In this document: piece by piece, positions 37,276 through 41,250 of the stretch
How positions within the stretch are numbered: position 1 is the first letter of the stretch
How the letters are laid out: the number at the start of each line of letters is the position of its first letter
Source: Bacteroidales bacterium
GTDB lineage: Bacteria > Bacteroidota > Bacteroidia > Bacteroidales > VadinHA17
Direction of reading: 5' to 3'
DNA length: 64,000 nt
Assembly (NCBI GenBank): GCA_963662685.1
Contig: OY759745.1
Coordinates: 2,309,799-2,373,798, forward strand
Position numbers and translations under genes: made by a program
Notes under the pieces: generated by a model
Seen by the model: the letters and a program-made list of their open reading frames with translations, nothing else
Database searches by the model: none
What the model was told of the DNA's origin: nothing

Positions 37276-37875
37276 TTAAAAACCTATATTGACCCCGGCC
37301 GAAGCACCTATATTTTTGTTTTTATAAACAGCATCGCCATTATATATATCCAACAGGCCAAGAGAATAATCTCCCTGGACAAAAACATGAAAAGGGCCTA
37401 ATCCGATCTGGAAGCCGAGACCAAATTTTAATCCGTAATCCTCTTTACGGAATTGGTCGCTTTCAAAATTCACATCTGTGCTGGTTTCGGAAGTCGCATT
37501 AAGTATATCTATGCTTCCATTCAATGCATAGGCTCCATATGCCCCTCCAAGGGCATATACCGGACCTAATTTGACCTTAGCCTGAACGGGTACCTCAATA
37601 TAATTCAGACAGGTTTTGTTATAATAATCATCCGTTGCGAAATGAGAACCCTTAGGAGAATAGAAGGCACCGATTCGTAAATCAATCAGAGGAATAAGAT
37701 CTTTATCAAAATAAATACCGCCACTGAAGTTTGTAAGATATTTCTCATCATAACCAGCAACTGCGCTGCCGTCAATCTTAGCGAAATTTTGTCCGATTTG
37801 AACGCCAAGCTGCGCTTTTGCCTGTACAGACAGAAGTAAGGAAACCGCTACGATTAATAATACTTTTATCTTCAT
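37276..37875 (-). CDS. Small outer-membrane beta-barrel protein (porin-family / OMP_b-brl_2 type), paralogous in design to 29423-30034
   Basis: Signal peptide MKIKVLLIVAVSLLLSVQAKAQ, LNYIEVPVQAKVKLGP motif and a terminal F. Confidence 0.7.
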   Translation of the reverse strand: MKIKVLLIVAVSLLLSVQAKAQLGVQIGQNFAKIDGSAVAGYDEKYLTNFSGGIYFDKDLIPLIDLRIGAFYSPKGSHFATDDYYNKTCLNYIEVPVQAKVKLGPVYALGGAYGAYALNGSIDILNATSETSTDVNFESDQFRKEDYGLKFGLGFQIGLGPFHVFVQGDYSLGLLDIYNGDAVYKNKNIGASAGVNIGF

Positions 37876-38126
37876 ACTATATCTGTTTAGTGAAATTATC
37901 AGAACTCTATCGGGATATAAAATTAAATATTTTCATTAAAAAACCGGCAGACGTGTAAAAAATGTGATCAGAATAGGATCATTACCATTCCCGGAAAATT
38001 ATTATTACCTGACGCAAAAATAATCCACATCCTTAAAATACATATTTTCAGATAAATATCGAATTAAATAATAAATGTTTCAAAAATTTTCAAATAAATG
38101 GTTGTATTTGTATTTAATAATATTAT

Positions 38127-38134
38127 ATATTTGC
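38127..38134 (+). promoter_or_regulatory. -7 promoter box TATATTTG for the padR operon
   Basis: Exact TAnnTTTG, 23 nt upstream of the ATG at 38158. Confidence 0.45.
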
Positions 38135-38157
38135 AATATTAAAGAAACTTATATATT

Positions 38158-38502
38158 ATGATTTCATCTGAATTATTAAAAGGATCGTTAAAAACGATAA
38201 TTCTGAAGTTATTGGAAGAAAACGGAAGAATGTATGGATATGAAATTACCCGGAGGGTAGAGAAACTGACCGGAGGAAAAATGAAGCTTACATATGGTGC
38301 TCTTTACCCGGTTTTACATAAACTGGAGGCTGAGGGGGTATTGATTACCGAATCGGAGAATTTCAATAACAGGATAAGGATATACTATCGCCTTACGCCC
38401 AAAGGGCATTCTGTTGTGGAAGAGAAGATAAAGGAATTGAATGAATTCATTGAGTCTTTACAGAGTATTATTGATCCCAAAACAGGATTGAGCCATGCCT
38501 GA
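38158..38502 (+). CDS. PadR family transcriptional regulator
   Basis: LKGSLKTIILKLLEE..RMYGYEI...VE..T.G......GALYP.LHKLE.EG. Confidence 0.9.
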   Translation: MISSELLKGSLKTIILKLLEENGRMYGYEITRRVEKLTGGKMKLTYGALYPVLHKLEAEGVLITESENFNNRIRIYYRLTPKGHSVVEEKIKELNEFIESLQSIIDPKTGLSHA

Positions 38503-39925
38503 GTTAACCCTGAAAAATGTCGATCAGATTATACGGGATATAAGAGAACAGGATATTGTATTCTCTCATTTAGCCGATGATCTGATTGATCATGTCTGTT
38601 GTGATGTAGAGTATGAGATGACGGATAATCTCTCGTTTGAAGAGGCATATAAAAAAGTGAAATTAAAAATTGGAACAAGGAGAATACAGGAGATACAGGA
38701 GGAGACTCTTTACGCTGTCGATACAAAATATAGAAATATGAAAAATACAATGAAAATTTCGGGTGTCATCGCTACGGTGCTGCTCGGCTTCTCGGCAATT
38801 CTCAAGATACAGCATTTGCCTTTTGCTGGGATCTTATTGACTCTTGGGGCTATAGGGCTTGCTTTAGTCTTTATGCCATCGGCTTTGAACGTACTTTGGA
38901 AGGAATCAAAAAGTGGTAGAAAAATTTTTCTGTTCATTTCGGCTTTTTTCTCCTCCCTGTTTTTTATTCTTGGAATGTTGTTCAAGATTCAGCATTGGCC
39001 GGGTTCGGGGATCATGATTCTGATCGCTGTACTTGTTGCTGGCTTGTTGTTTATTCCGGCGCTTTTGGTTTTTAAGATGCGCGACACTGATAACAAGAGG
39101 AAAAGACCTCTTTATGTTTCAGGAGCCATAGCGCTTTTGTTTTATGTGGCCGCATTTTTGTTCAGGATAATGAATTGGCCATTTGCCGGAATTATGGGCT
39201 TGATCGGATGGTTGGGACTGGTATTTGTGACTTTTCCGTGGTATACGGTATTAAACTTTAAGGATGATAAAAATATATCCGCCAGATTCATTTTTATTTC
39301 TATAGCTATACCGCTAATAGTTGTGCCATCTGCTTTGATAAACCTGAACCTTGGTAATTCTTACGAAAAAGATTTTTTTGACCATCTAAATGGTCAGGAG
39401 GCATTATTGGAATACCAGACAGGCATGTATGATTCATACCGTGCAGCATATGAAACAGACTTACCGGATACTGTTCTGATCGGGTTGGAGAATCAAAGAG
39501 ACAGGACAATATCAATAATAAACGATATTGAAAAGAGAATGATATCCATGGCAGAAGGAGAAGCAGGGATACCTGTGGCGTCACCTCGCCAGATAAGTTT
39601 TTCGGGAAATATGATGAAGGTAGATTACCGGATGTTGAGTGAACCGTTCATGCGCGGGCCATTTAACTCTTTAATTATGAGTGGGACAGAAGGCAGGATA
39701 TCCTTGGAAAACGCATTATCTGATTATATGAATTCTTTATCGGAAACGGCAGGATACCAGGTTACCGGGGATCTTGGCGACTTATTGACAGTGTCAACTT
39801 ATATAGGCAATGATGTGGAAGATAAAGAAATCTCTTTAGTCACCGCCCTGCATTCGCTGGATCTGATGAAAAACAGCGTTATGGCGGTTCATTCGTATGT
39901 AATCGGGAAAATAACAGATAAATAA
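38495..39925 (+). CDS. PadR-associated polytopic membrane protein with three repeated K-x-x-H/N-W/L-P-x-A/S-G-I TM hairpins and a C-terminal extracytoplasmic domain
   Basis: The start overlaps the padR stop (ATGCCTGA). The N-terminal helical module reads DDLIDHVCCDVEYEM..NLSFEEAYKKV. The repeats are LKIQHLPFAGILL, FKIQHWPGSGIMIL and FRIMNWPFAGIMGL. Confidence 0.7.
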   Translation: MPELTLKNVDQIIRDIREQDIVFSHLADDLIDHVCCDVEYEMTDNLSFEEAYKKVKLKIGTRRIQEIQEETLYAVDTKYRNMKNTMKISGVIATVLLGFSAILKIQHLPFAGILLTLGAIGLALVFMPSALNVLWKESKSGRKIFLFISAFFSSLFFILGMLFKIQHWPGSGIMILIAVLVAGLLFIPALLVFKMRDTDNKRKRPLYVSGAIALLFYVAAFLFRIMNWPFAGIMGLIGWLGLVFVTFPWYTVLNFKDDKNISARFIFISIAIPLIVVPSALINLNLGNSYEKDFFDHLNGQEALLEYQTGMYDSYRAAYETDLPDTVLIGLENQRDRTISIINDIEKRMISMAEGEAGIPVASPRQISFSGNMMKVDYRMLSEPFMRGPFNSLIMSGTEGRISLENALSDYMNSLSETAGYQVTGDLGDLLTVSTYIGNDVEDKEISLVTALHSLDLMKNSVMAVHSYVIGKITDK

Positions 39926-39934
39926 ATCAAGATC

Positions 39935-40879
39935 ATGAAAGAGAAAAAATACATATTAGGATTGATATCAATCGGAACACTAGTTTTGGGCGCTGTATTT
40001 AAGGTTAACCATTGGCCCGCGGCCGGGATAATGATAACAATAGGAACGTTATTGGTAGTGTTCGCGTTTCTTCCCCTGGCACTTATATCAAATTACAGGA
40101 TAGAGAAAAACAGGGCCAACCTGCCCCTGTATTATACTACATGGGTAACTTGTCTGATTGTCATGAGCGCTATGTTGTTCAAAATAATGCACTGGCCGGG
40201 GGCCGGTATTCTTGTCGTTGTCTCTCTTCCTTTTCCTTTCGTGGTTTTTCTTCCGGTATATCTGTACGTGACTTCGAAAAACAAAAACTACAATATGTAC
40301 AATATGGTTTTTGTGCTTTTTCTTTTGGCTGTTCAGGCTATGTTCGCGGCTTTACTGGCATTAAACGTATCACGGGAACGCATCGACGACAGTCTCACAT
40401 TTGCGGCAGATTATAACAGGGTAGAAGAGAAAATCAGACCTGTAGTTAAGGATAGCGGCGCCGATGATTCAAAGATAGTTGTCGATATTAACGCTACTCT
40501 GAAAATAATAGATGAATGTCAGGATATGCTCTTTACGGGTATAGGAGTTACGGAAAAGACGTGGGAGGAGGACCCATTTAAGGTACCTTATATGGATAGT
40601 AGGGGTTATCTGGCTAATTTGTTGATATATAATAATGATAATGCGCCTGGAATAATGTTGGGAAAGAGCCTTGACAACCTGTTTAATGACTTTAAGGAAA
40701 TGAAAGGAAGTGGCGCATCATACGATACTTTTGCTTCAATTATTAATTATCAACGTGAAGAAGACGACGTAAATTCATGGTCGGAGACCCTGTTCACAGA
40801 TAATTATTTGTCGTGGGTACTTATATATCTTGATGAACTGGAGGTAAATCTACTGTTTTTAAAATCTGTTTTTATCTAA
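39935..40879 (+). CDS. Membrane protein with two further copies of the same TM-hairpin motif plus a C-terminal soluble domain
   Basis: FKVNHWPAAGIMITIG and FKIMHWPGAGILVVV. It starts 9 nt after the preceding gene. Confidence 0.7.
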   Translation: MKEKKYILGLISIGTLVLGAVFKVNHWPAAGIMITIGTLLVVFAFLPLALISNYRIEKNRANLPLYYTTWVTCLIVMSAMLFKIMHWPGAGILVVVSLPFPFVVFLPVYLYVTSKNKNYNMYNMVFVLFLLAVQAMFAALLALNVSRERIDDSLTFAADYNRVEEKIRPVVKDSGADDSKIVVDINATLKIIDECQDMLFTGIGVTEKTWEEDPFKVPYMDSRGYLANLLIYNNDNAPGIMLGKSLDNLFNDFKEMKGSGASYDTFASIINYQREEDDVNSWSETLFTDNYLSWVLIYLDELEVNLLFLKSVFI

Positions 40880-41250
40880 GTACAATTTATTTACCTTCGG
40901 ATGTTACCCCTTGATAATGAGAACTATATTCCTGCGGCACAAATTATAGCGAAGACCCAAAAAGAGACCATACTGTTCCCTGGCGACTGAACTCATAATG
41001 GTATTCATGTTCGGGGAAGAGAAGAGAGAAAAGCCTGGTCCCAGGTAAACCGAGGATACTGAAATTTCCGGCACTTTGCCTCTTTGTTTCGTTGCGGCGA
41101 AAATCAAAACTCCAAAACGAAATATTTTTTTAACCCCCACAAAGTCGACCCATCTTCCCAATGGTAAAAGAAGAATAACGGAAGAGCCAGATTAACTGAA
41201 GATGTAAGAAATGGATTAAGAAAGGATGTAACGGCGACAACCTAAAGAAA

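Follow-up and report, generated by a model that had tools for sequence, protein, structure and literature searches.

A padR-linked pair of Bacteroidales membrane proteins made of GldL-type hairpins and GldM-type units: a putative transcriptional switch on a motor scaffold

GldL- and GldM-type parts encoded beside padR

The window analysed here is a stretch of 64,000 nt from a Bacteroidales bacterium (VadinHA17; GCA_963662685.1, contig OY759745.1, positions 2,309,799-2,373,798), the genome of which is a single contig of 3.10 Mb. On its plus strand lies a three-gene operon that combines a PadR-family regulator with two membrane proteins, here called B and C. The first gene, padR (38158-38502), codes for a winged-helix regulator of 114 aa that belongs to the PadR winged helix-turn-helix (wHTH) family PF03551 (E-value 1.7e-18, 66.8 bits against a cut-off of 27), and its C-terminal helix EFIESLQ is kept in 70 orthologues. 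Gene B (38495-39925, plus strand, 476 aa) starts with an ATG inside the end of padR (ATGCCTGA), which gives an overlap of 8 nt, and gene C (39935-40879, plus strand, 314 aa) starts 9 nt after B. The initial annotation of this DNA, made from the letters, had given the range 38158-40879, the length of B, the 9-nt gap between B and C and five copies of a K-x-x-H/N-W-P motif, all of which were found again in the sequence. Its proposal of a translationally coupled padR operon is also borne out by the 8-nt overlap and by near-invariant synteny.

Relatives of the operon were collected by a degenerate-pattern scan with one genome per species, which detected them in 247 genomes; 80 of the loci were retrieved. 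The carriers are all Bacteroidales metagenome-assembled genomes, with fens, peat, lakes and soils as their sources. Of 78 loci that could be evaluated, 77 have padR as the gene directly before B, and in 59 the two overlap by 8 nt as they do here; C comes directly after B in 75 of 76. This agrees with the conserved synteny of padR and hairpin-repeat proteins that had been predicted. In an even sample of the order, a B-like protein was present in 37 of 301 genomes (about 12%) from about 30 families, and an even sample of the phylum gave a full-length match in the window's own genome only.

B consists of an N-terminal module, three GldL hairpins and a GldM transmembrane (TM) helix with a D1 domain, and C of two GldL hairpins followed by the same GldM helix and D1. 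Hairpins 2 and 3 and helix 7 of B align with hairpins 1 and 2 and helix 5 of C, so that hairpin 1 of B is the extra one. Each presumed cytoplasmic loop of the two proteins has two to six Lys or Arg residues, whereas such residues are absent from the periplasmic turns of five residues. This positive-inside bias fits a topology with the N-terminus in the cytoplasm and the C-terminus in the periplasm, and hairpins and axle helices would thus be oriented as in GldL and GldM. B and C share one reading frame, and read-through would leave a linker of four residues; as such a linker cannot join a periplasmic C-terminus to a cytoplasmic N-terminus, a read-through fusion was set aside for complex prediction.

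The five copies of the repeat had been said to recall the hairpin of GldL faintly, and this likeness turned out to be true homology. The full proteins are matched by Pfam GldL_N (PF22827) with 45.6 bits for B and 44.4 bits for C at a cut-off of 24, and a six-frame GldL_N search of the 3.10-Mb genome returned the authentic gldL with 111 bits together with four of the five hairpins singly. These are, all on the plus strand, hairpin 1 of B (38753-38887, residues 87-131, LKIQHLPFAG, 22.6 bits, in gapless register with GldL), hairpin 2 of B (38930-39067, residues 146-191, FKIQHWPGSG, 27.1 bits), hairpin 1 of C (39950-40084, residues 6-50, FKVNHWPAAG, 29.1 bits) and hairpin 2 of C (40127-40264, residues 65-110, FKIMHWPGAG, 23.4 bits). 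Hairpin 3 of B (39110-39247, plus strand, residues 206-251, FRIMNWPFAG) was assigned by the family alignment and the register table; it is locally degenerate, with Arg and Asn replacing Lys and His, and the family consensus at this place is FKIQHWP. All five hairpins align without gaps to the GldL of the same genome (GALFKIQHWPMAGLMLTVGLLTEAVIFF), which has the identical FKIQHWP turn, and to the GldL/PorL chains of the Protein Data Bank (PDB) entries 7SAU and 7SAT.

The FK-x-x-H-(W/F)-P turn within a GldL_N hairpin, by which GldL proteins are recognised, is found in B and C alike, and the K-x-x-H-W-P motif is kept in more than 1000 homologues of each protein. Judged from these matches, the five-copy repeat is real rather than compositional and is homologous to the GldL hairpin. 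Because the genome's own GldL and the solved GldL/PorL chains align gaplessly, K-x-x-H-W-P is best taken as an ancestral signature of the hairpin turn and not as a new sensing adaptation. The suggestion that the His/Trp/Pro motif forms a proton-, ion- or lipid-sensing module was accordingly given up, since the motif is present in the genome's own GldL and the proton-handling Glu49 is gone from all five copies. The match to GldL covers the hairpin region alone: the NCBIfam equivalog for full-length GldL (TIGR03513) gave 27.6 and 33.9 bits for B and C against a cut-off of 68.3, and in place of one hairpin with a cytoplasmic C-terminal domain, as in full-length GldL, there are three and two hairpins per chain.

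Soluble C-terminal domains, which had been noticed before, exist in both proteins (residues 286-476 of B and 145-314 of C), but the additional TM helix in front of each and the homology to GldM had been overlooked, and the parts list of a 5:2 GldLM complex was therefore missed as well. The GldM-like unit of B (39284-39922, plus strand) comprises TM helix 7 (residues 264-285, ending PSALINLNL) and a periplasmic helical domain like GldM D1 (residues 286-476); that of C (40301-40876, plus strand) comprises TM helix 5 (residues 123-144) and a periplasmic D1-like domain (residues 145-314). Helix 5 of C ends with ALLALNVSRE, and the corresponding helix of the genome's own GldM ends with AMLALNVSKE. 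A TM helix with an ending of the LNVSKE type followed by a helical D1, the arrangement at the N-terminus of GldM, is present in both B and C.

Evidence for this relationship came from several sides. With a reference alignment in which the N-terminal parts of 29 authentic GldM proteins of the class were combined, hhalign matched the GldM helix plus D1 to the C family (residues 136-313; 96.7%, E-value 4.1e-10, 175 columns) and to the B family (residues 277-475; 89.7%, E-value 1.9e-6, 186 columns). A profile of the C family searched against PDB sequences recovered both partners from one entry, GldL with hairpin 1 (7SAU_C, E-value 1.3e-4) and GldM with residues 136-307 (7SAU_A, E-value 4.2e-4). 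AlphaFold2 models were obtained with a predicted local distance difference test score (pLDDT) of 78.4 for B and 80.0 for C. In Foldseek comparisons, the model of B had GldM (7SAX_A and 7SAX_B), PorM (6EY0_D and 7CMG_B) on PDB ranks 1-4, with target template modelling scores of 0.55-0.66 and of 0.26 for the longer 7CMG_B, and the model of C had GldM (7SAU_B) and PorM (6EY0_A and 6EY0_B) on ranks 1-3 with scores of 0.51-0.55. Finally, a hidden Markov model (HMM) of authentic GldM directly matched divergent orthologues with E-values down to 6e-39 for C-like and 1.5e-30 for B-like proteins, and Pfam GldM_1st (PF12081) matched sister architectures with 46.9 and 50.2 bits at a cut-off of 25 and, weakly, 18 of 48 B-family members. 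The window's proteins themselves stay under the GldM_1st threshold and single-sequence Pfam scans of their C-terminal parts gave nothing useful; profile methods were required. By these four independent routes of sequence and model comparison, the C-terminal TM helix and soluble domain of B and C are homologous to the GldM helix and D1. Profile searches thus lead from the hairpin unit to GldL and from both C-terminal domains to GldM.

Added up, the GldL hairpins in B and C number five and the GldM units two, which equals the stoichiometry of GldL5GldM2. With the proton-driven GldL5GldM2 and PorL5PorM2 complexes of gliding and type IX secretion (PDB 6YS8, 7SAT, 7SAU, 7SAX, 7SAZ) they share the FK-x-x-H-W/F-P hairpin, the axle helix ending in LALNVSKE, the first periplasmic helical domain, the topology and the parts count of five plus two. 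However, B and C have their hairpins concatenated, three in one chain and two in the other, and linked covalently with the axle unit, the cytoplasmic C-terminal domain of GldL is lacking, B carries an additional N-terminal PadR-partner module, and the genes are linked to padR instead of gld or por genes.

The residues that make GldLM a motor are also missing. Glu49 of GldL is strictly conserved and essential (PMC8986121), and its salt bridge to GldM Arg9 is conserved across all solved motors. At the equivalent position, 18 residues after the motif Lys, hairpins 1, 2 and 3 of B and hairpins 1 and 2 of C have Leu, Gly, Leu, Leu and Pro throughout the family, with Leu in at least 90% of members for hairpin 1 of B, so that none of them has the essential Glu of TM helix 2. 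At the position of Arg9, C has a Phe and no conserved equivalent exists; Arg264 of B is displaced by one turn, at a position where R, K, G, H, M and E all occur. A conserved charged residue was not found anywhere in the TM cores of B and C. Both proteins end with the D1-like domain, and domains D2-D4 of GldM are absent, with no other GldM domain detected in Pfam scans. Furthermore, the hairpins are joined to the axle helix by cytoplasmic loops of 12-14 residues, which tie the ring to the axle and thus, as far as can be read from the sequence, exclude rotation of the ring about it.

With Glu49, Arg9 and D2-D4 gone and ring and axle covalently joined, B and C are, on sequence grounds, not a canonical motor. 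The same applies in comparison with MotAB, ExbBD, TolQR and ZorAB, to which they are likened by architecture alone: the parts list implies the membrane template of a ring of five around an axle of two, whereas these motors depend on a ring that turns freely and on a conserved acidic residue through which ions pass, and B and C have neither. To our knowledge, 5:2 complexes (MotAB, ExbBD, TolQR, GldLM, ZorAB) are known solely as ion-driven motors.

The N-terminal module and the putative operator

Residues 1-85 of B (38495-38749, plus strand) form a cytoplasmic module of three helices with the core L..DL.DH.CC..E...F..AY...G...IQ..T. In the AlphaFold2 model, the helices span residues 6-18, 26-42 and 48-105, the last one continuing into TM helix 1. 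The core reads L..(D/E)L.DH.C(C)..E...F..AY in the diverse family, and among 28 diverse module members L26, D32, H33, E39 and F48 are invariant and C35 is present in at least 90%. A phmmer search with the module against 1.84 billion representatives gave 494 clusters at an E-value of 1e-3 or below; among the 150 matches listed of these 494, the module begins at residue 1-19 of the hit, save for one partial match. At all examined loci except one (L131), padR lies directly upstream of the module.

At this exceptional locus (L131:6463-7188, minus strand), which belongs to another phylum-level relative, a protein of 241 aa combines the N-terminal DH-x-CC module with a lone TM helix and an M23 peptidase domain. 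The fusion indicates that the module is a portable unit.

From its position and conservation, the module is presumed to be a dedicated PadR-partner module that serves as a docking or transducing head for PadR. The initial annotation had compared it with the short helical modules of PadR membrane partners; this holds for the adjacent padR and the N-terminal location in relatives, but membership of the HAAS/DUF1700 families by sequence was not found. Neither a single-sequence Pfam scan nor a PDB profile search gave a match for the module, and Pfam PF22564 and PF08006 matched neither B nor 48 family members nor the 28 diverse N-terminal modules. Searched over the genome, PF22564 found another gene, for a PspC-type protein beside a second PadR, and not B; hhalign of the module with a set of 28 authentic HAAS domains from the class of this genome reached 0.75% with an E-value of 0.075. 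A search of 121 genomes with HAAS_TM (PF08006) was silent everywhere, controls included. Since the Pfam, PDB profile, PF22564 genome and hhalign comparisons were all negative, the module is regarded as a functional analogue of HAAS that is HAAS-like by context only, and it is possibly a very divergent relative.

HAAS-PadR-like wHTH dyads have been proposed as an alternative to two-component signalling (PMC11237479). With these dyads (HAAS PF22564, HAAS_TM PF08006), the operon shares a short stand-alone PadR-like wHTH gene adjacent and coupled to a membrane-protein gene, and a cytoplasmic three-helix module at the N-terminus ahead of multi-TM sensor domains. In contrast to HAAS, which is defined by three helices with a GxP kink, the module of B shows the three-helix architecture in the AlphaFold2 model but has its own DH-x-CC...E signature and no clear GxP kink, and the GldL/GldM-derived TM sensor of B and C is absent from that paper. 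The paper does mention unnamed 6TM, 4TM and 2TM partners (PMC11237479), which may correspond to three, two and one hairpins.

The sole other PadR-like gene of the genome (C1:1020220-1021142, 109 aa) adjoins a gene for a 198-aa protein with an authentic HAAS (36.3 bits) and a PspC-type N-terminus (MKKTVNINLGGYPFHVDEDAF). Each of the two PadRs encoded in this genome thus has a partner in the membrane.

Upstream of padR, the region 38101-38133 (plus strand) contains a -7 box, TATATTTG (38126-38133), preceded by a TTG/TTTG element resembling a -33 element. The Bacteroides promoter consensus is TAnnTTTG, and by this Bacteroidota consensus the region would act as the promoter of the operon. The block tttgtATTt...ATATttTATATTTG is positionally conserved in about 66 orthologous loci, 37-40 nt ahead of the padR ATG. 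Between the -7 box and this ATG lies an inverted repeat (38135-38157, plus strand; AATATTAAAG-AAA-CTTATATATT), which is a putative PadR operator. Its family consensus is AATATATAAG-N3-CTTATATAT, the core TTTGCAATAT / CAATATATAA occurs verbatim in 42-44 of 75 species, and in the cross-species alignment the G and C of AAG/CTT are columns of high information within an AT-rich context. An inverted-repeat finder run on the window reported other AT-rich pairs instead of this one. A weight matrix of 23 nt, built from other species alone and scanned over the whole 3.1-Mb genome, ranked the padR operator first with 28.6 bits; the next locus reached 18.6 bits and the 99.999th percentile was 8.6 bits. 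PadR would therefore be expected to bind this repeat, and its place over the transcription start fits a mainly autoregulatory circuit.

The second-best match in the genome (C1:1513921-1513943, TTTATATAAGAAAATTATATAAA, 18.6 bits) is situated 31 nt ahead of three small, clustered genes on the minus strand, which code for lipoprotein-like or secreted proteins (225, 244 and 298 aa). It is a possible, weak candidate for an extra PadR target.

A candidate switch and its alternatives

The composition of the system, GldL and GldM parts beside PadR, is robust; the mechanism described here is inferred. B and C would form a heterodimer whose two GldM-like helices and two D1-like domains associate in the manner of GldM2, with the three plus two hairpins wrapped around the paired axle helices in the manner of GldL5. 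As this assembly would not rotate, its role would be that of a static relay of conformational changes. On a periplasmic or membrane cue, perceived through the paired D1-like domains or the TM bundle, the helices would repack and thereby shift the long helix that connects TM helix 1 with the N-terminal module, and the shifted module would bind or release a PadR dimer. PadR in turn would act at the operator over the transcription start to repress its own operon, which would make the system primarily autoregulated. In GldLM, TM packing and the periplasmic conformation of GldM are coupled (PMC8986121). In the AlphaFold2 model of B, helix 48-105 and helix 263-318, which carries TM helix 7 into the periplasmic domain, are unbroken, and the TM part would thus be rigidly coupled to the module.

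The initial annotation had seen in the operon a possible uncharacterised envelope-signal transduction system, and this is kept as the best reading, now with the GldL/GldM composition and the PadR synteny added. An autoregulated PadR switch that is governed by a sensor derived from motor parts, a one-step device from membrane to DNA, is considered somewhat more probable than not. The 5:2 assembly of B and C is put forward with more reserve and stays somewhat short of probable. The strict pairing of three-hairpin with two-hairpin proteins, in 75 of 76 close and 14 of 15 divergent loci, favours a heterodimer with five hairpins. That B and C in a 1:1 ratio form a hard-wired pseudo-5:2 complex, with a ring of three plus two hairpins around a two-helix axle turned into a transmembrane switch that drives a transcription factor, is a tentative proposal.

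Several observations weigh against these assumptions. The Foldseek E-values are weak (0.05-0.5) although GldM and PorM rank first, and the hhalign comparison of the module with authentic HAAS domains was negative, as given above. In the wider family, the number of hairpins varies between one, two, about four without GldM, and two with GldM in stand-alone proteins; the latter would give 4:2 if dimeric, so that five hairpins are not obligatory. At one divergent locus (L176:3376-4842, minus strand), which encodes a three-hairpin B-like protein of 488 aa (GldM HMM 4e-16) with padR upstream, the C-like partner is missing downstream, its place being taken by a convergent gene for a 619-aa secreted protein; such a partner may have been lost or be encoded at another site. 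Moreover, conservation and periodicity were analysed for each TM helix and gave no significant periodicity, and a buried axle was not separated from a lipid-facing ring. Sequencing runs in which this sequence was found were all genomic.

Among the other explanations, an input from the cytoplasm fares best. The cluster D32-H33-x-C35(-C36)...E39 could serve as a metal site or as a sensor of thiol-reactive or redox stress, with the GldL/GldM part as an anchor or oligomerisation scaffold that sequesters PadR. Such a role would suit the invariance of D32, H33 and E39 and the presence of C35 in at least 90% of members whatever the hairpin number and with or without GldM, the occurrence of the same module in front of a lone TM helix and an M23 peptidase, and the conservation of the module, which outside the TM helices is the highest in B (0.77 versus 0.52 for the periplasmic domain). 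These residues could, however, equally form a surface for binding PadR, at least one relative (L130) is without the Cys, and the conservation of the TM hairpins and the strict pairing of B with C are hard to explain for a mere anchor. A cytoplasmic input is therefore regarded as improbable.

Similarly, B and C could monitor or modulate the real GldLM and type IX secretion system (T9SS) by docking to GldM, GldL or their partners, and PadR would then report the status of motor or secretion. A genuine gldL-gldM pair is indeed present in the genome, the hairpins share the exact motif of this GldL, and the axle-less single-hairpin versions (139-142 aa) of other lineages could need a foreign partner. 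But B and C carry complete ring and axle parts of their own, and linkage to gld or por genes was not seen in any of the 80 loci. As T9SS is nearly universal in the class (59 of 61 genomes), its co-occurrence with the operon is uninformative, and a monitoring function is thought unlikely.

A further explanation takes B and C as a working, energy-transducing paralogue of GldLM that uses other residues or another ion to power an envelope process, its expression being merely regulated by PadR. In its favour, B and C have the parts and the topology of a 5:2 motor, conservation of their TM helices is very high, and about one third of the orthologous loci adjoin a TolC/HlyD/MacB-type efflux cluster. 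Against this stand the loss of the strictly conserved Glu from all five hairpins and of any conserved Arg or other charged residue from the TM cores, the end of the GldM-like units after D1, so that they cannot reach the outer membrane, the short covalent loops between ring and axle that forbid rotation, and the direct fusion of the ring to a PadR-docking head; a motor role is accordingly held to be quite unlikely. That the repeat is a chance or compositional feature and the operon a generic pair of PadR and a hypothetical membrane protein can practically be dismissed, since the Pfam scans of single sequences, which were empty for the N-terminal module and both C-terminal parts, are outweighed by GldL_N matches above the cut-off, by agreeing profile, PDB and fold evidence and by the motif in more than 1000 homologues.

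Full-text literature searches gave no description of GldL/PadR combinations, of GldL-like or GldM-like paralogues or of GldL_N outside the motor. PadR with a membrane partner and GldLM are both known separately; what would be new is a PadR-plus-membrane-partner switch built on the GldLM scaffold. If the proposed switch is correct, it would be the first case of a rotary 5:2 motor scaffold that was stripped of ion coupling and rotation and converted to signalling, and the split into genes with three and two hairpins would solve an odd-number asymmetry that a homodimer cannot. The concatenated version would offer a natural model of fixed stoichiometry for structural work on the packing of ring and axle. 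The operon would also add a widespread sensor type to the poorly understood PadR regulators that are controlled by membrane partners, and gives a name to more than 1000 "hypothetical" proteins of environmental Bacteroidales.

Wider family and neighbouring genes

Besides the arrangement in the window, padR is followed by proteins that combine the N-terminal module with one hairpin (139-142 aa), two hairpins (210 aa), about four hairpins and no GldM part (355-392 aa), two hairpins and a GldM unit in a single stand-alone protein (390-432 aa), or a single TM helix and an M23 peptidase (241 aa). Five stand-alone two-hairpin proteins bearing the module were found. Of the 15 divergent loci with three hairpins, 14 have a two-hairpin partner with a GldM unit directly downstream.

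In the window, the operon is flanked by a divergent OMP_b-brl_2 gene and a convergent kor operon. The former (37276-37875, minus strand) codes for an outer-membrane beta-barrel protein of 199 aa (Pfam OMP_b-brl_2, 3.5e-15) and occurs beside the operon in only 2 of the 80 loci; it is therefore probably unrelated. Towards the kor operon, a consensus scan for sigma-70 promoters and terminators showed no terminator-like hairpin for either side in the spacer from the end of C (40880-41250, 370 bp), and hence no terminator after C; the sigma-70 consensus is unsuited to Bacteroidota promoters.

Universal neighbours of padR, B and C were not found among the 80 loci, and two recurrent surroundings were observed. 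In about 28 of the 80, including L047 (7820-11964), genes for a TolC-like outer-membrane efflux protein (OEP), a HlyD-type adaptor, an ABC ATPase and a MacB-type permease follow directly downstream of C on the same strand. Another set of about 28 orthologous loci has TetR and OEP genes upstream. Neither the TolC/HlyD/ABC/MacB genes nor TetR plus OEP occur in the window, and these efflux-cluster neighbours may hint at efflux or envelope stress as a physiological theme of the orthologous operons.

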